Shown: positions 14,442 through 22,570 of the stretch, piece after piece
Layout: every line of letters starts with the position of its first letter
How positions within the stretch are numbered: position 1 is the stretch's first letter
DNA from: Escherichia phage HK106
Sequence record: NC_019768.1
DNA length: 41,468 nucleotides
Reading direction: 5' to 3' (one strand)
Program-made: the position numbers and the translations under genes
Notes under the pieces: generated by a model
What the model was told of the DNA's origin: nothing
The model's input: the letters and a program-made list of their open reading frames with translations, nothing else
Databases searched by the model: none

Positions 14442-17400
14442 ATGGCTACAGATAAAGTGTTAAAAGGCCGCAAGGGCGGCAGCTCAAGTTCCCGAACTCC
14501 TACCGAACAGCCTGATGATCTGCAATCTGTAGCGAAGGCAAAAATCCTCGTTGCGCTTGGGGAAGGTGAGTTTGCAGGGCAGCTCACCGGCAAAGATATC
14601 TACCTGGACGGAACAGCGCTGGAGAATGCTGACGGCTCCCAAAACTTCAGCGGGGTAACGTGGGAGTTTCGCGCGGGAACTCAGGCGCAAAAATATATTC
14701 AGGGTATTCCCGGTACCGAAAACGAGATCAGCGTAGGAACTGAGGTATCAAGTGCCACAGCCTGGACGCGCACGTTTACCAATACGCAGCTTTCAGCAGT
14801 TCGCCTGCGTCTTAAATGGCCCTCGCTTTTCAAACAGGAGGACGACGGCGATCTGGTGGGTTACTCGGTCAATTATGCAATTGACCTGCAGACGGACGGC
14901 GGCGCATGGCAGACGGTACTCAATACCAGCGTGACCGGAAAAACGACGTCTGGTTATGAGCGCAGCCACCGTATCGATTTACCGCAGGCTGGCAGCACCT
15001 GGACAATACGTCTGCGTAAGATTACCTCTGACGCCAACAGCGCGAAGATCGGCGACACGATGATGCTGCAGAGCTTCACCGAGGTGATTGACGCCAAACT
15101 GCGCTACCCGAACACCGCGCTGCTCTACGTCGAATTCGACTCAAGCCAGTTCAACGGCTCTATTCCTCAAATTTCATGCGAACCGCGCGGCCGCGTTATC
15201 CGCGTTCCAGATACCTACGACCCTGAAACCCGCACTTATAGCGGTACATGGACCGGTGCGTTTAAGTGGGCATGGACGGATAACCCTGCGTGGATTTTTT
15301 ACGACCTGGTTGTTTCTGACCGGTTCGGCCTTGGGCACCGTTTGACCGCTGCGAATATTGATAAATGGACGCTTTATCAGGTTGCTCAGTATTGTGATCA
15401 GATGGTACCAGACGGCAAAGGGGGCAACGGTACAGAACCACGTTATACCTGCAACGTGTACATTCAGGACCGGAACGACGCCTACACAGTCCTGCGTGAT
15501 TTTGCCGCTATCTTCCGTGGCATGACCTACTGGGGCGGGGATCAGATTGTGGCCCTGGCTGACATGCCGCGCGATGTTGATTACAGCTATACGCGCGCTA
15601 ACGTTGTTGGCGGTCGCTTCACCTATTCGAGCAGCACCACGAAAAGCCGCTACACCACAGCGCTGGTTTCATGGTCAGACCCGGGTAACGCTTATGCCGA
15701 CGCGATGGAGCCGGTATTTGAGCAGGCGCTGGTGGCGCGGTACGGCTTCAATCAGCTGGAAATGACAGCCATCGGCTGCACCAGGCAGTCAGAGGCGAAC
15801 CGAAAGGGGCGCTGGGGTATTCTCACCAATAACAAGGATCGCGTTGTTTCGTTTGATGTCGGGCTGGACGGAAACATTCCGCAGCCGGGCTACATCATCG
15901 CCGTGGCAGACGAGCTGCTTTCCGGAAAGGTTATGGGCGGCCGCATCAGCGCCGTTAACGGTCGCGTTATCAAACTTGACCGCGTAGCTGATGCAGCACC
16001 AGGTGATCGCCTTATTCTCAACCTACCTTCCGGAGCGTCGCAGAGCAGGACCATTCAGGCCGTGAACGGGGAATCAGTCACAGTCACCACGGCATACAGT
16101 GAGACGCCACAGGCCGAAGCTGTTTGGGTGGTTGAATCTGACGAGCTTTACGCGCAGCAGTATCGTGTTGTCAGCGTCTCCGACAACGGTGATGGCACTT
16201 TCTCAATCACCGGCGCATGGCACGACCCGGATAAATATGCCCGCATCGATACCGGAGCCATCATTGACCAGCGGCCGGTGAGCGTGATCCCGCCTGGTAA
16301 CCAGTCGCCGCCTGCGAACATCGTGATCAGCTCGTTTTCCGTGGTTCAGCAAAATATCAGCGTCGAAACAATGCGCGTGAGCTGGGACCAGGCGCAGAAC
16401 GCTATCGCCTATGAAGCGCAATGGCGCCGCAACGACGGGAACTGGGTTAACGTGCCGCGCACCTCCACCACGTCATTCGACGTCCCGGGGATTTATGCCG
16501 GGCGCTACCTGGTGCGGGTGCGCGCAATCAATGCCGCAGAAATTTCATCCGGATGGGGCTATTCAGAAGAGAAAACGCTGACGGGTAAAGTGGGCAATCC
16601 ACCGAAGCCTGTTGGCTTTATCGCCTCTGAAAACGTGGTGTTCGGTATCGAGCTGAACTGGGGATTCCCGGCGAATACCGACGACACGCTGAAGACGGAA
16701 ATTCAGTACAGCCTGACCGGTACTGAAGACGATGCCATGCTGCTGGCCGATGTGCCTTACCCGCAGCGCAAATATCAGCAGATGGGCCTTAAGGCTGGGC
16801 AGATTTTCTGGTACCGCGCGCAGCTGGTTGACCGCAGCGGTAACGAGTCAGGTTATACCGGCTGGGTTCGTGGGCAGGCCAGTATCGATGTTTCTGACAT
16901 CACAGATGTGATCCTTGAAGACATCAAAGGGTCTGAGACGTTCAAAGACCTGATCGAGAACGCTGTGGACAGCAATGAAAAAATTGCTGGCATGGCTGAC
17001 GACATCAAACAGGCCAATGATGAACTTGAGCAGCATGCGAAGGATATCGCCAAAAACGCCCAGGACGTCGGGAAGGTTCAGACCAGCGTTAATGAGCTTT
17101 CCAGCACGGTCGGGAATGTTTCGTCTTCACTCAGTCAGCTTGAGCAGACCGTTGCGACGGCTGATACCGCGCTGGGCCAGCGAATCGACAGCATCAGTGT
17201 GTCTATGGACGGCATGACGGGTGGGGTCAAGAACTCAGCCATTGCCATTATCCAGAACGGGCTGGCGCAGGTGGCTGCGCGTAAAACCCTGTCTGCATCG
17301 GTCGCCGGCAACAGCGCGAATCTGGACCGTATTGATGAGGTGATTGTCAACGACAGGGAGGCAACGGCGCGCTCGCTGCTTAGCCTGCAGACGGACGTCA

Positions 17401-17993
17401 ACGGCAACAAGGCATCCATCAATAGCCTGAATCAGACGTTCTCCGACTATCAGCAGGCTACGGCCACGCAGATAAACGGCATAACGGCGACGGTGAACGG
17501 GCATACCTCCGCCATCACCACTAACGCTCAGGCGATAGCCAACGTTAATGGCGACCTCAGCGCGATGTACAACATCAAGGTTGGCGTTTCCAGCAACGGT
17601 CAGTATTACGCCGCGGGGATGGGTATCGGCGTGGAGAATACGCCATCCGGCATGCAGTCGCAGGTTATCTTCCTGGCTGATCGCTTCGCCGTCACCACGG
17701 CAGCCGGAAATAGCGTGGCTTTGCCGTTTGTGATCCAGAATGGACAGACATTCATCCGGGCCAGTTTCATCCAGGACGGCACTATCAGCAACGCAAAGAT
17801 TGGTAATTTTATCCAGTCGAACAATTATGTTGCTGGTTCTGCTGGCTGGAAGCTTGATAAAGGGGGGACGTTTGAGAACTACGGTTCGACTGCTGGTGAG
17901 GGAGCCATGAAACTGACAAATCAGACGATCAGCGTCAAAGATGGCAGTAATGTTCTTAGGGTGCAGGTTGGCCGATTAACGGGAGTATTCTGA
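14442..17993 (+). CDS. host specificity protein J (central tail fibre / tip attachment protein)
   Basis: 1183 aa, colinear with lambda J through the N-terminal and central regions. Confidence 0.9.
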   Translation: MATDKVLKGRKGGSSSSRTPTEQPDDLQSVAKAKILVALGEGEFAGQLTGKDIYLDGTALENADGSQNFSGVTWEFRAGTQAQKYIQGIPGTENEISVGTEVSSATAWTRTFTNTQLSAVRLRLKWPSLFKQEDDGDLVGYSVNYAIDLQTDGGAWQTVLNTSVTGKTTSGYERSHRIDLPQAGSTWTIRLRKITSDANSAKIGDTMMLQSFTEVIDAKLRYPNTALLYVEFDSSQFNGSIPQISCEPRGRVIRVPDTYDPETRTYSGTWTGAFKWAWTDNPAWIFYDLVVSDRFGLGHRLTAANIDKWTLYQVAQYCDQMVPDGKGGNGTEPRYTCNVYIQDRNDAYTVLRDFAAIFRGMTYWGGDQIVALADMPRDVDYSYTRANVVGGRFTYSSSTTKSRYTTALVSWSDPGNAYADAMEPVFEQALVARYGFNQLEMTAIGCTRQSEANRKGRWGILTNNKDRVVSFDVGLDGNIPQPGYIIAVADELLSGKVMGGRISAVNGRVIKLDRVADAAPGDRLILNLPSGASQSRTIQAVNGESVTVTTAYSETPQAEAVWVVESDELYAQQYRVVSVSDNGDGTFSITGAWHDPDKYARIDTGAIIDQRPVSVIPPGNQSPPANIVISSFSVVQQNISVETMRVSWDQAQNAIAYEAQWRRNDGNWVNVPRTSTTSFDVPGIYAGRYLVRVRAINAAEISSGWGYSEEKTLTGKVGNPPKPVGFIASENVVFGIELNWGFPANTDDTLKTEIQYSLTGTEDDAMLLADVPYPQRKYQQMGLKAGQIFWYRAQLVDRSGNESGYTGWVRGQASIDVSDITDVILEDIKGSETFKDLIENAVDSNEKIAGMADDIKQANDELEQHAKDIAKNAQDVGKVQTSVNELSSTVGNVSSSLSQLEQTVATADTALGQRIDSISVSMDGMTGGVKNSAIAIIQNGLAQVAARKTLSASVAGNSANLDRIDEVIVNDREATARSLLSLQTDVNGNKASINSLNQTFSDYQQATATQINGITATVNGHTSAITTNAQAIANVNGDLSAMYNIKVGVSSNGQYYAAGMGIGVENTPSGMQSQVIFLADRFAVTTAAGNSVALPFVIQNGQTFIRASFIQDGTISNAKIGNFIQSNNYVAGSAGWKLDKGGTFENYGSTAGEGAMKLTNQTISVKDGSNVLRVQVGRLTGVF

Positions 17994-17994
17994 A

Positions 17995-18297
17995 ATGGCT
18001 TATGGAATACAGACCTGGGATGCTTCAGGAAAACCCAACAACTATGGCATCAAACCCGTTTCCGTCGTTGGGCGAATACAGCTGGCTGCCGGGCAAACCT
18101 CCGGCAGCTGGTCTTTTACGGTGCCCTCAGGAATGAAAGTTGGTTTTGTTCTTTCACTTGATGAAGGAGGTAACAGCGTAGGGCGGCGCATTGTCGCGTC
18201 AGGGAGCACAATAACCGTAAGCGCTGCATCTTCTGTAGGTCTGGGTAATTATCCGGCCTCAAAGTGTGAAGTGGTCGTTTTCATGGAGAAAGCATAA
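17995..18297 (+). CDS. hypothetical protein (tail operon, downstream of J)
   Basis: 100-aa ORF, ATG 2 nt after J stop; shares a W-D-x-S-G-K motif with the next ORF. Confidence 0.5.
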   Translation: MAYGIQTWDASGKPNNYGIKPVSVVGRIQLAAGQTSGSWSFTVPSGMKVGFVLSLDEGGNSVGRRIVASGSTITVSAASSVGLGNYPASKCEVVVFMEKA

Positions 18298-18935
18298 TGG
18301 CCGAATTTGGCGCGATGATATTAATGGACAACGGGAACCCATTTGTAACGCCCCAGTCAACGCCTTTTTGTCTTTACGGCAAGTACACTTTCAACTCCTC
18401 TGCTAATGGCAGTTCGCAGCAGGTTGCTCAGAATATTGCATTAAATGCTGACTACCCTGTGATGGTATTTATCAGGACCACAAATACCGCCCAGCCCACG
18501 CCAGTAATATCTTACCGGAACGGCGGAAATATATATGTCGCGGGGGTTAATCCCTATAACCAGAGCTTCACGTTAACCGCATATATTTTTGCCATATTTC
18601 CCCAGACGTTACCGAAATGGGGGATGGCCATCTGGGATTCGAGCGGGAAGCTGGTACTCACTAATGAGTCCCGCGTGCTGTCAGACTTGCAGACAATCGG
18701 AACGCCTGGAGCAAACGGCGGGATTAACATTGACCAGACGCTTGATGGTTCATGGGCAGTGGCTCCATCAAGGCTGGGGCAAGTGAACAGAAACGACGCT
18801 TACTCATCTTGTAGGTATTCAGGCACAAGTACAAGAATAAACGCCGGTACAGCCGCAAATACACCTGGCGGTGCTGGAGGGGTGATAAATAATGGAATTA
18901 TCCTGACAGCAATTAAAACAGACGCCTATGATTGA
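18297..18935 (+). CDS. hypothetical protein (tail operon, downstream of J)
   Basis: 212-aa ORF, TAATG overlap with the upstream ORF. Confidence 0.5.
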   Translation: MAEFGAMILMDNGNPFVTPQSTPFCLYGKYTFNSSANGSSQQVAQNIALNADYPVMVFIRTTNTAQPTPVISYRNGGNIYVAGVNPYNQSFTLTAYIFAIFPQTLPKWGMAIWDSSGKLVLTNESRVLSDLQTIGTPGANGGINIDQTLDGSWAVAPSRLGQVNRNDAYSSCRYSGTSTRINAGTAANTPGGAGGVINNGIILTAIKTDAYD

Positions 18936-19042
18936 TTGTTTTGAGCGATCAATAACAAATAATTTATCTATCTAATCAATTATATCCATCGATTATGTAT
19001 TGGTATCTTCGAAGCTACTGAATACCTCTGGATACTATCAAA

Positions 19043-19276
19043 ATGAAAAGGCTAATTATCTGCATAGCGGGCGCTTTAATGCTGTCTGGTTGCGCTGGTG
19101 TACTTGAGAAACAGAAACCGATTTGCAGCGGCACGGCATATATGGGTGGCCATGAGAATACCGTTATGATTTACGCCGTTCGAAAGCAAAACAACCAGAC
19201 GCAATACCGGGCCGGATATCCCTTTAACTGGCGCTGGGTAAGTGCGAACACATTCACAAGCACGACATGTAAATAA
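19043..19276 (+). CDS. small lipoprotein, Cor-like putative superinfection exclusion protein
   Basis: 77 aa; signal peptide with lipobox LSGC; AT-rich upstream region and own terminator; position downstream of J where cor is found in phi80/HK022-type phages. Confidence 0.5.
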   Translation: MKRLIICIAGALMLSGCAGVLEKQKPICSGTAYMGGHENTVMIYAVRKQNNQTQYRAGYPFNWRWVSANTFTSTTCK

Positions 19277-19294
19277 CTCATGATTTTCAATGCA

Positions 19295-19320
19295 AACCTC
19301 GCCTCGGCGGGGTTTTTTAT
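19295..19320 (+). terminator. intrinsic terminator
   Basis: CCTCGCC-tc-GGCGGGG followed by TTTTTTA. Confidence 0.6.
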
Positions 19321-19334
19321 TGCCTGGAGAAAAT

Positions 19335-20288
19335 ATGCTTTATAACACTGGAACCATCGCCATTAACGGAAACAGCGCCACCGGCACGGGCACGAACTGG
19401 ACGGCACCCGCCAGCCAGGTTCGCGCTGGCCAGACGATTATCGTGATGTCTAACCCGGTGCAGCTGTTTCAGATTTCATCCGTGAACAGCGCCACGTCAA
19501 TGACGGTTACTCCAGCTGCTTCCCCTGCGCTGAGCGGCCAGAAGTATGGAATTCTGGTATCAGACAATATCTCGGTTGATGGGCTGGCGCTGGCCATGTC
19601 GCAGCTTATCAAGGAGTATGACGAGAATATTGGTGCGTGGGAGACGTTCGCCACAACCTCAGCAAACCAAAGCATCACAGTTACCATCAACGGCACCGCC
19701 GTAACCATCCCAGGCATCGGTAAACTTGCGCAGAAAGGGAGCAACGGTGCGGTTACTGTCGCAGACGGCGGAACCGGCGCAACGAATGCCGCAGACGCTC
19801 GCACAAACCTTGGTTTGGGAGAAGGCTCTGCATTACCTGTTGGTGTCCCTGTTCCGTGGCCTTCCGCCACTCCGCCAACAGGCTGGCTGAAATGCAACGG
19901 TGCGGTTTTTTCTGCTGAAGAATACCCGGAACTGGCAAAGGCTTATCCAACAAATAAATTGCCAGATTTACGTGGTGAGTTTATTCGTGGCTGGGATGAC
20001 GGGCGTGGGGTCGATTCAGGGCGAGCGCTGCTGTCCGCACAAGGTGATGCTATAAGGGACATATCAGGGAAGCTCTTGGGACTTATGACCACTGCGGGAA
20101 GCCAGATGACAGCAGACGAGTGGGTAACAGGGGCATTTAATGCTGTATACGAAGGCGGCGCTGGTCAAACAACCTCATCGCCCGGTAGTAGGTATGACGT
20201 AGGTTTTTCCGCCGCCAGAGTTGTACCAACTGCGGAAGAAAACCGACCACGTAACATTGCATTTAACTACATTGTAAGGGCATCATGA
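19335..20288 (+). CDS. side tail fibre protein with C-terminal collar-like domain
   Basis: about 317 aa from the ATG at 19335 (SD GGAG); C-terminal motif LPDLRGEFIRGWDDGRGVDSGR typical of phage tail fibre collar domains; the track start 19290 lies inside the terminator. Confidence 0.8.
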   Translation: MLYNTGTIAINGNSATGTGTNWTAPASQVRAGQTIIVMSNPVQLFQISSVNSATSMTVTPAASPALSGQKYGILVSDNISVDGLALAMSQLIKEYDENIGAWETFATTSANQSITVTINGTAVTIPGIGKLAQKGSNGAVTVADGGTGATNAADARTNLGLGEGSALPVGVPVPWPSATPPTGWLKCNGAVFSAEEYPELAKAYPTNKLPDLRGEFIRGWDDGRGVDSGRALLSAQGDAIRDISGKLLGLMTTAGSQMTADEWVTGAFNAVYEGGAGQTTSSPGSRYDVGFSAARVVPTAEENRPRNIAFNYIVRAS

Positions 20289-20896
20289 TGACCACAAAAA
20301 AAATCACTTTGGATGAAAACGGATTTGCAACAGAAGCTGGCTTCATCACCGTTTACAACTACAGCGGTGAAACGCGGGAATATATTTCCACATCAACTGA
20401 ATATCTTGCCGTTGGTGTCGGTATCCCGGCATGTTCTTGTTTAGATGCACCAGTTACACATAAAGCTGGTTATGCAATCTGCCGTTCTGCAGATTTTAAC
20501 TCATGGGAATATGTGCCAGACCATCGCGGTGAAATCGTTTTTAGCACCGAAACAGGGGAATCAAAAGAAATCACAGCTCCGGGTGATTACCCTGATAATA
20601 CAACCACTATCGCCCCGTTAACCCCATACGATAAATGGGATGGTGAGAAATGGGTGACGGATACCGAGGCACAGCACGGCGCAGCAGTAGATGCAGCAGA
20701 AGCACAGCGCCAGTCGCTGATTGATACTGCAATGGCCTCCATCAGTCTGATTCAGCTGAAATTGCAGGCCGGACGTAAACTGACGCAGGCAGAAACAACC
20801 CGCCTTAACGCTGTGCTGGATTACATTGACGCGGTGACGGCAACAGATACCAGCACCGCGCCGGATGTCATCTGGCCTGAACTGCCGGAGGCGTAG
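20285..20896 (+). CDS. tail fibre assembly protein (Tfa)
   Basis: 203 aa, ATGA overlap with the fibre gene; Tfa-like sequence. Confidence 0.8.
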   Translation: MMTTKKITLDENGFATEAGFITVYNYSGETREYISTSTEYLAVGVGIPACSCLDAPVTHKAGYAICRSADFNSWEYVPDHRGEIVFSTETGESKEITAPGDYPDNTTTIAPLTPYDKWDGEKWVTDTEAQHGAAVDAAEAQRQSLIDTAMASISLIQLKLQAGRKLTQAETTRLNAVLDYIDAVTATDTSTAPDVIWPELPEA

Positions 20897-21224
20897 GCCA
20901 TTCAATATCTGGCGCACCGGAAGTATCGACCAGCTCCAGTGCGTCCAGTTGACATCCTCCACGCCCTGAAGGACGGGGTTTTACGGCGCACCGGATAAAT
21001 CCAAATGGAGTTTCGGGAGATAAATGAAACCGCAGCCACGTCGTATGCAAGAACGTGCTGCGGCTGGCTGGCGAACTTTCGATAGTGCGAGTATTGAATG
21101 ATTTCCAGCCGTTACCGATTTTACTATGTTTTCAGTAGAACGCTTAGACAAAACTGAGGCGCACAAAGCTTTGCACTGGACTGCAAGGTGTTGTGCTTCT
21201 CTGGAGTGCGATATGTTTGATGAC

Positions 21225-21262
21225 AAAAAATTAGCGCAAGAGGACAACAAATCACCTTGCGC
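21225..21262 (-). terminator. sib / tI-like hairpin terminator downstream of int
   Basis: GCGCAAG…CTTGCGC hairpin with a T-tract on the minus strand; same arrangement as lambda sib/tI next to attP. Confidence 0.5.
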
Positions 21263-21411
21263 TAATGCTCTGCTACAGGTCACTAATACTATCTAAGTAG
21301 TTGATTCATAGTGACTGGATATGTTGTGTTTTGTCGCATTATGTAGTCTATTTTTTAGACTAAATATATTGTAATGCATTGATATTAATGGTTTTTAATG
21401 TTTCACGTTCA

Positions 21412-21499: not shown

Positions 21500-22570
21500 T
21501 TATTTGATTTCAATTTTGTCCCACTCCCTGCCTCTGTCATCACGATACTGTGATGCCATGGTGTCCGACTTATGCCCGAGAAGATGTTGAGCAAACTTAT
21601 CGCTTATCTGCTTCTCATAGAGTCTTGCAGACAAACTGCGCAACTCGTGAAAGGTAGGCGGATCCCCTTCGAAGGAAAGACCTGATGCTTTTCGTGCGCG
21701 CATAAAATACCTTGATACTGTGCCGGATGAAAGCGGTTCGCGACGAGTAGATGCAATTATGGTTTCTCCGCCAAGAATCTCTTTGCATTTATCAAGTGTT
21801 TCCTTCATTGATATCCCGAGAGCATCAACATGCAATGTTGTAGGTATGGCAATTTTTACGCCTGTTTTGCTTTGCTCGACATAAAGATAGCCATCTACGA
21901 TATCAGACCACTTCATTTCGCATAAATCACCAACTCGTTGCCCGGTAACAACAGCCAGTTCCATTGCAAGTCTGAGCCAACATGGTGATGATTCTGCTGC
22001 TTGATAAATTTTCAGGTATTCGTCAGCTGTAAGTCTTGATCTCCTTACCTCTGATTTTGCTGCGCGAGTGGCAGCGACCGGGTTTGTTGTTATATGGCCT
22101 TCAGCTATTGCCTCTCGGAATGCATCGCTCAGTGTTGATCTGATTAACTTGGCTGATGCCGCCTTGCCCTCGTCTATGTATCCATTGAGCATTGCCGCAA
22201 TTTCTTTTGTGGTGATGTCTTCAAGTGGAGCATCAGGCAGACCCCTCCTTATTGCTTTAATTTTGCTCATGTAATTTATGAGTGTCTTCTGCTTGATTCC
22301 TCTGCTGGCCAGGATTTTTTCGTAGCGATCAAGCCATGAATGTAACGTAACGGAATTATCACTGTTGATTCTCGCTGTCAGAGGCTTGTGTTTGTGCCCT
22401 GAAAATAACTCAATGTTGGCCTGTATAGCTTCAGTGATTGCGATTCGCCTGTCTCGGCCTAATCCAAACTCTTTACCCGTCCTTGGGTCCCTGTAGCAGT
22501 AATATCCATTGTTTCTTATATAAAGATTAGGGGGTAAATCCCGGCGCTCATGACTTCGCCTTCTTCCCAT
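21500..22570 (-). CDS. int: tyrosine integrase (lambda Int-like)
   Basis: 356 aa, matches lambda Int over its whole length as I recall it; overlaps xis. Confidence 0.95.
   Translation of the reverse strand: MGRRRSHERRDLPPNLYIRNNGYYCYRDPRTGKEFGLGRDRRIAITEAIQANIELFSGHKHKPLTARINSDNSVTLHSWLDRYEKILASRGIKQKTLINYMSKIKAIRRGLPDAPLEDITTKEIAAMLNGYIDEGKAASAKLIRSTLSDAFREAIAEGHITTNPVAATRAAKSEVRRSRLTADEYLKIYQAAESSPCWLRLAMELAVVTGQRVGDLCEMKWSDIVDGYLYVEQSKTGVKIAIPTTLHVDALGISMKETLDKCKEILGGETIIASTRREPLSSGTVSRYFMRARKASGLSFEGDPPTFHELRSLSARLYEKQISDKFAQHLLGHKSDTMASQYRDDRGREWDKIEIK

Follow-up and report, generated by a model that had tools for sequence, protein, structure and literature searches.

FhuA is the receptor of phage HK022 (PMC6814406) and of phage phi80 (PMC10373560), and phages of this kind can carry a small gene, cor, whose product shuts the same receptor off. 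The Cor phenotype has been published for HK022, N15, phi80 and mEp167 (PMC3594210; bioRxiv 10.64898/2026.03.26.714494). According to PMC3594210 (citing Uc-Mass et al. 2004), FhuA is inactivated by the Cor proteins of HK022, N15 and phi80, with reduced ferrichrome uptake and protection from colicin M; across the family, cells that carry cor resist T1, T5, phi80 and HK022-like phages as well as colicin M, and pay for it in ferrichrome uptake. FhuA-dependent phages with a cor gene are reported as frequent among faecal lambdoid phages (Hernandez-Sanchez et al. 2008). The gene order in which J is followed by two ORFs and then by cor was already noted by Wietzorrek et al. 2006, according to the summary in PMC13164509, and detachable receptor-binding proteins have been proposed for Drexlerviridae/T1-like phages (PMC8594841, 10.64898/2026.04.02.716166).

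A 2026 preprint on the FhuA:Llp complex (10.64898/2026.03.26.714494) states that the molecular mechanism of Cor has not been elucidated, and that predicted Cor structures, that of HK022 included, resemble Llp, which is phage T5's lytic conversion lipoprotein. The mechanism of Llp itself was solved in PMC9586334: the lipoprotein binds the FhuA plug from the periplasm, with refolding of EL7/EL8. An AF3 model for a T1-type Cor is reported in PMC13164509.

The cor locus described here lies in a stretch of 41,468 nucleotides, called the window below, that amounts to an almost complete genome of a lambdoid phage in the HK97/HK022 group (Hendrixvirinae). Judged from its sequence, the 77-aa ORF at 19043-19276 is cor, the gene for the phage exclusion lipoprotein of HK022/phi80/N15-type phages, and we put the probability of this at about 0.9. 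The gene as such is already known: many phage and E. coli genomes have been deposited with it annotated, and its phenotype is published. What is added to the existing annotation is the placing of the cassette boundaries relative to HK97, and the finding, reached independently, that among solved structures Llp matches best. The features of the locus are, by position in the window:

17863-17993, + strand: 3′ end of J, the FhuA-type J tip, belonging to the same exchanged module as the genes that follow
17995-18297, + strand: 100-aa ORF of the HK022 p24 / N15 gp22 family (PHROG 557, E = 2.4e-36), first cassette gene after J
18297-18935, + strand: 212-aa ORF of the HK022 p25 / N15 gp23 family (PHROG 425, E = 9.7e-75), second cassette gene
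18903-18932, + strand: candidate sigma-70-like promoter CTGACA-18-TATGAT (10/12), inside the 3′ end of the 212-aa ORF
18936-19042, + strand: AT-rich leader or intergenic spacer, 107 bp, 29% G+C, aligned with HK022, phi80 and N15
19043-19276, + strand: cor gene for a 77-aa prolipoprotein, from the ORF, identity with HK022, NCBIfam NF047972, PHROG 1119, the lipobox and an AlphaFold2 model
19294-19315, + strand: intrinsic terminator of cor, with a 9-bp stem, a 4-nt loop and a T-run to about 19321

The cor gene and its relatives

The cor ORF starts at an ATG, its protein begins MKRLIICIAGALMLSGCAGV, and the full 77-aa sequence encoded in the window is MKRLIICIAGALMLSGCAGVLEKQKPICSGTAYMGGHENTVMIYAVRKQNNQTQYRAGYPFNWRWVSANTFTSTTCK. 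The signal peptide occupies residues 1-16, with the n-region MKR (charge +2) and an h-region of 10 aa, LIICIAGALM; it leads into the lipobox L-S-G-C, of which Cys17 is the predicted lipidation site and the +2 residue is Ala. By the sorting rule of the Lol system, Ala instead of Asp at +2 predicts transfer to the outer membrane, and an outer-membrane destination is therefore expected for Cor. Under these established rules the protein would be lipidated on Cys17 through Lgt/LspA/Lnt processing and then delivered to the periplasmic leaflet of the outer membrane. The mature part comprises 61 aa (6.9 kDa) and is basic (pI 9.5), and the G+C content of the gene is 47%, against 49% in the window as a whole.

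Across the whole coding sequence there are 0 nucleotide differences from HK022 cor, and at the protein level identity is 100% with Cor as annotated in HK022 (NP_037685), HK75, mEpX1, mEp234, mEp235, HK446 and HK544; annotated Cor proteins with this same 100% identity occur in more than 20 phage records. Protein identity is 79% with phi80, 64% with N15 and 36% with T1. The NCBIfam equivalog NF047972, “phage exclusion lipoprotein Cor”, matches residues 1-76 of the 77 with 138.8 bits against a cutoff of 31, and PHROG 1119, “Cor superinfection exclusion protein”, matches at E = 2.4e-37; Pfam holds no family for Cor or for the two ORFs upstream of it. In the alignment of five Cor sequences C28, G35, G36, E38, R56-F61 (RAGYPF) and C76 are invariant, and the lipobox residues L14, G16 and C17 (L-x-G-C) are unchanged in HK022, phi80, N15 and T1. 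In a set of 30 homologues C76, G58, P60, F61 and W65 never vary, and C28 hardly does. The codon differences from phi80 cor number 24 synonymous against 16 non-synonymous, as expected under purifying selection.

The earlier note on this DNA had read a Cor-like lipoprotein of 77 aa with the lipobox LSGC from the letters alone. The lipoprotein stands, with MKR, a 10-residue hydrophobic core and LSGC ending in Cys17, and “Cor-like” can be strengthened to cor itself on the nucleotide identity with HK022 and the two family matches; the alignment with Cor sequences that the note had proposed as a check has given the identities listed above. What it had said of the surroundings holds too: the region upstream is AT-rich (29% G+C in the 107-bp spacer against 49% in the window), the gene has its own terminator (the hairpin and T-run at 19294-19315, conserved with a compensatory change), and the ORF coordinates place it between the J-associated ORFs and the side tail fibre gene. 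Its statement that a lipoprotein at this position in phi80/N15/HK022-type phages excludes FhuA-dependent phages agrees with the published function of the family (PMC3594210). From the identity with HK022 cor we infer that this exact phage would exclude in the same way. The identity of the protein and its phenotype are near certain, and we grade them well above the step of the mechanism, discussed below, that likens Cor to Llp.

The homologues form 114 protein clusters, many of them named Cor, mostly from Escherichia, Enterobacter, Citrobacter, Salmonella and Klebsiella, and 242 phage records encode one, T1-like and Dhillonvirus phages included. The 601 bp around cor are 100% identical in HK446, mEpX1 and mEp234 and 99.5-99.8% identical in HK75, HK022, HK544, HK542, mEpX2, mEp235 and HK633, and in all the phages that match these 601 bp the ORF is annotated as Cor. 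RefSeq labels the same 385 bp (18936-19320) as cor in E. coli chromosomes. This allele with its leader and terminator is uncommon there, being found in 9 of 5,426 complete E. coli genomes, and it is always annotated cor. One of these nine genomes belongs to the cloning strain XL10-Gold; its copy is 79% identical, just as phi80 cor is, and in our reading it is probably a phi80-type cor.

Compared with HK022, the window has the same Cor protein, coding sequence, leader and terminator, at the same position after J/p24/p25. About 2 differences separate the two in 601 bp (99.7%), none of them in the gene and one of them at the last base of the candidate -10 hexamer. The Cor proteins of phi80 and N15, the original lysogenic-conversion genes, share the length, the lipobox, the two conserved cysteines, RAGYPF, the gene order and a homologous terminator, whereas the signal peptide and residues 29-45 have diverged and in N15 cor and the terminator stand about 170 bases further apart. 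More distant are Cor of T1 and of other Drexlerviridae/Dhillonvirus phages (30-46% identity), which are also FhuA-dependent and have the same two small ORFs linked beside a J-like gene (PMC13164509); unlike the phage in the window these phages are virulent, and in T1 transcription of cor, on the opposite strand, converges with that of the tail module.

Leader, promoter candidate and terminator

At its upstream edge the leader begins within a hairpin (18931-18953; ATTGATTG / CGATCAAT, with GATC in the 3′ arm) that overlaps the stop codon of the 212-aa ORF. It folds at -8.1 kcal/mol (z = -3.3); phi80 has both arms without a mismatch, and N15 retains part of them. An operator or an RNA element may be behind it, or chance.

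A promoter consensus scan near cor gave 1 match, against 1.9 expected in shuffles. In the columns that correspond to the candidate at 18903-18932, N15 reads TTGACG-18-TACGAT, while HK022 and phi80 read TATGAC, with the final T missing; when the aligned leaders of the window, HK022, phi80 and N15 were scanned with relaxed sigma-70 hexamers, no candidate was common to all four. Co-regulation of cor with fhuA by iron through a Fur box was considered and rejected: the best match between 18900 and 19045 agrees with the 19-bp consensus at 10/19 positions, below the shuffle mean. A search around cor for direct and inverted repeats, as scars of insertion, returned short AT-rich matches and small palindromes, and no flanking direct repeats.

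The terminator hairpin starts 18 bases past the cor stop codon and is followed by TTTTTTATT. Its folding energy is -15.6 kcal/mol (z = -4.3), a value reached by 0/200 shuffles. It is kept in HK022, phi80 and N15, with N15 showing a compensatory change of a C-G pair to T-A and, besides, C-G in place of a G-T wobble, and it is annotated in the records of HK446, mEp234 and phi80. Directly behind it lies the ribosome-binding site of stf (GGAG, 19326-19329). The mechanically called tail fibre ORF begins further upstream, at an ATG ahead of the hairpin, as it does in the RefSeq record of mEpX1 at the base equivalent to 19290; from a start at 19290 the tail fibre coding sequence would run through the terminator hairpin. 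A start at the ATG at 19335, with GGAG ahead of it, is more plausible, and agrees with the phi80 annotation and with the boundary of the homology to HK97.

A receptor-specificity cassette behind J

Upstream of cor lie J (14442-17993, with GpJ and tail-tip domains) and then the two small ORFs; downstream follow the side tail fibre gene stf (start 19335, Collar domain) and tfa (20285-20896). The order J, 100-aa ORF, 212-aa ORF, cor is common to the window, phi80, N15 and HK022. HK97 has a lambda-like J, no cor and neither of the small ORFs, and as the one cor-lacking relative compared it defines the limits of what differs. Homology to HK97 is lost after 17862, with 44 codons of J still to come, and is found again from 19334, the base directly ahead of the stf start codon. 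The block from 17863 to 19333 thus has 1,471 bp where HK97 has 676 bp, and from these breakpoints the exchanged unit consists of the J tip, the 100-aa ORF, the 212-aa ORF, cor and the terminator; at the same place HK97 has a longer J C-terminus.

On this comparison, calling cor the final gene of a receptor-specificity cassette describes it better than calling it a lone insertion or moron. A moron, a term reportedly defined by Juhala and colleagues in 2000, is said to be an independent transcription unit added to a phage genome. The earlier note had called cor a moron, and part of that stands, given that the gene has its own terminator and that the HK022 record labels cor a moron product. What does not stand is a discrete unit relative to HK97, against which the whole block 17863-19333 has been swapped. 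These boundaries fit the current view in which receptor-binding genes and the matching receptor-blocking lipoprotein are one exchangeable module, and within it cor would be inherited as the last gene of a cassette made of the J tip, the 100-aa ORF, the 212-aa ORF, cor and the terminator.

HK97 J, which binds LamB, is longer than the J protein of the window by 113 aa. The last 136 aa of the window's J are 100% identical to phi80 J, and over its last 230 aa the identity with HK022 J is 98%. Since the J tip is like those of phi80 and HK022, both of them users of FhuA, this phage is very probably FhuA-dependent, and its Cor very probably blocks the phage's own receptor. For annotation this is useful, as cor marks the phage as a FhuA-dependent member of the HK97/HK022 group.

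Neither the 100-aa nor the 212-aa ORF has a signal peptide or a transmembrane segment (maximum Kyte-Doolittle means over 19 residues of 1.27 and 0.82), and searches of Pfam and NCBIfam matched neither. Databases name some of these ORFs “membrane protein”, names that look unfounded because there is no signal peptide and no hydrophobic segment. Perhaps, in HK022/phi80-type phages, FhuA is recognised by these two small proteins (17995-18935) and not by the C-terminus of J, with cor as the cognate exclusion factor; the 1.5-kb block 17863-19333 would then be a portable cassette of “receptor plus antidote”. The exchange of the block as a unit relative to HK97, the shortening of J by 113 aa and the two ORFs without an export signal are compatible with this, and the linkage of the two ORFs to the J tip fits the proposal of detachable receptor-binding proteins (PMC8594841). 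We hold it tentatively, at somewhat less than even odds.

The genome around the cassette is itself a mosaic, matched at 97-99% identity over shared parts by HK97, HK633, HK75, mEpX1 and mEp234. The mEpX1 match stops at about 19816, inside stf. Beyond that point mEpX1 encodes another fibre C-terminus and a DNA invertase, while in the window the end of stf is HK97-like and is followed by tfa and a lambda-type integrase gene (21500-22570, - strand); the position near 19816 is thus another mosaic joint, within stf (region 19816-21300).

Action on FhuA and competing explanations

An AlphaFold2 model of Cor built with 30 homologues has a mean pLDDT of 82, rising above 90 over the mature domain, and shows five beta strands. 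A Foldseek search of the model against the PDB gave nothing significant; the best solved-structure match is T5 Llp in its FhuA-bound form (PDB 8A60 chain B, 7QJF), with 11% identity in the structural alignment, and the predicted model has an Llp-type fold. In the viral structure library BFVD the top matches of the model are phage superinfection-exclusion proteins and T5-like lipoproteins. By sequence the two proteins do not meet: neither the single Cor sequence nor a 30-sequence profile found an Llp chain in the PDB at E <= 10, the matches that did appear being signal-peptide-level noise (TraV, DotD, TrwH), and no match in NCBIfam, PHROG or Pfam links Cor to Llp. The Llp-like resemblance of Cor is also concluded in PMC9586334, PMC13164509 and the 2026 preprint. 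Cor and Llp are alike in being small outer-membrane lipoproteins of about 60 residues with an intramolecular disulfide (a probable one in Cor), encoded beside the receptor-binding gene, that inactivate FhuA; they differ in that there is no detectable sequence homology between them and that it is only for Llp that attachment to the plug of FhuA from the periplasm has been shown (PMC9586334).

Going by the model, an Llp-like mechanism is the most likely one for Cor, and we consider it fairly probable. The 61-residue, beta-rich mature protein, probably with a Cys28-Cys76 disulfide, would bind the periplasmic face or the plug of FhuA as T5 Llp does. Binding would lock the extracellular loops of FhuA in a state that receptor-binding proteins cannot use, the loops being allosterically folded over the site of the receptor-binding protein as they are for Llp. 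A lysogen whose own receptor is blocked in this way would be protected from relatives of other immunity types, and during lytic growth Cor would probably save progeny from being lost on debris. Because lysogenic conversion has been published, expression of cor from the prophage is implied, and so a promoter for it must exist; in lytic growth cor would also be transcribed within the late operon, where, going by the biology of lambda, polymerase modified by Q would pass the cor terminator and go on into stf.

Several other explanations bear on these points. That the ORF is a chance one, or an unrelated small lipoprotein that merely sits at the position of cor, is suggested by its small size and by nothing else, and runs against the equivalog-level match to NF047972, the nucleotide identity with HK022 cor together with the excess of synonymous differences from phi80, and the 114 clusters of homologous proteins, many of them named Cor; the Cor alignment, the family match and the codon comparison refute it, and we give it next to no weight. 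A more serious question is whether Cor jams FhuA one to one, or instead acts through other outer membrane proteins such as porins and OmpA, or together with the two co-inherited small proteins. An interaction of Cor with other outer membrane proteins is attributed to Arguijo-Hernandez et al. 2018 (cited in PMC11893012), and a need for such proteins could also complement an Llp-like step; PMC13164509 speculates that the two upstream proteins take part; the lack of a detectable sequence relation to Llp points the same way. Against such indirect exclusion, the best structural match of the Cor model is FhuA-bound Llp, and the two upstream ORFs, with neither a signal peptide nor a membrane segment, are unlikely partners in the envelope of a lysogen. 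In published work on N15 and phi80, moreover, cloned cor alone is reported to convert cells, which also counts against indirect exclusion, and we regard it as unlikely.

The time at which Cor does its work is a separate matter. Instead of a lysogenic-conversion moron with transcription of its own, cor might be chiefly the last gene of the receptor module in the late tail operon, expressed mainly in the lytic cycle as in the virulent phages T1 and T5, with the role of keeping progeny off debris and off cells already infected. The exchange of cor along with the J tip and the two ORFs would suit this, as would the homologues in virulent phages (T1, Drexlerviridae) and the want of a conserved strong sigma-70 promoter, the 10/12 match being without its last T in HK022 and phi80 and no more matches turning up than in shuffles. 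However, protection has been reported for lysogens of HK022, N15 and phi80 (PMC3594210) and calls for expression from the prophage, the HK022 record carries the moron label, and a 107-bp AT-rich spacer with a dedicated terminator is typical of a separate transcription unit. We therefore think a mainly lytic role improbable, while noting that late-operon and lysogenic roles are not mutually exclusive.

With Cor acting on FhuA in the lysogen, as we prefer to read it, lysogens of this phage are predicted to resist T1, T5, phi80 and colicin M and to be impaired in ferrichrome uptake. The same logic is seen in Rtp45, an exclusion lipoprotein of phage Rtp: a small protein encoded beside the receptor-binding locus attaches to the phage's own receptor on its periplasmic side and so keeps the receptor-binding protein from binding (PMC12685063), but the target differs, being LptD (LptDE).
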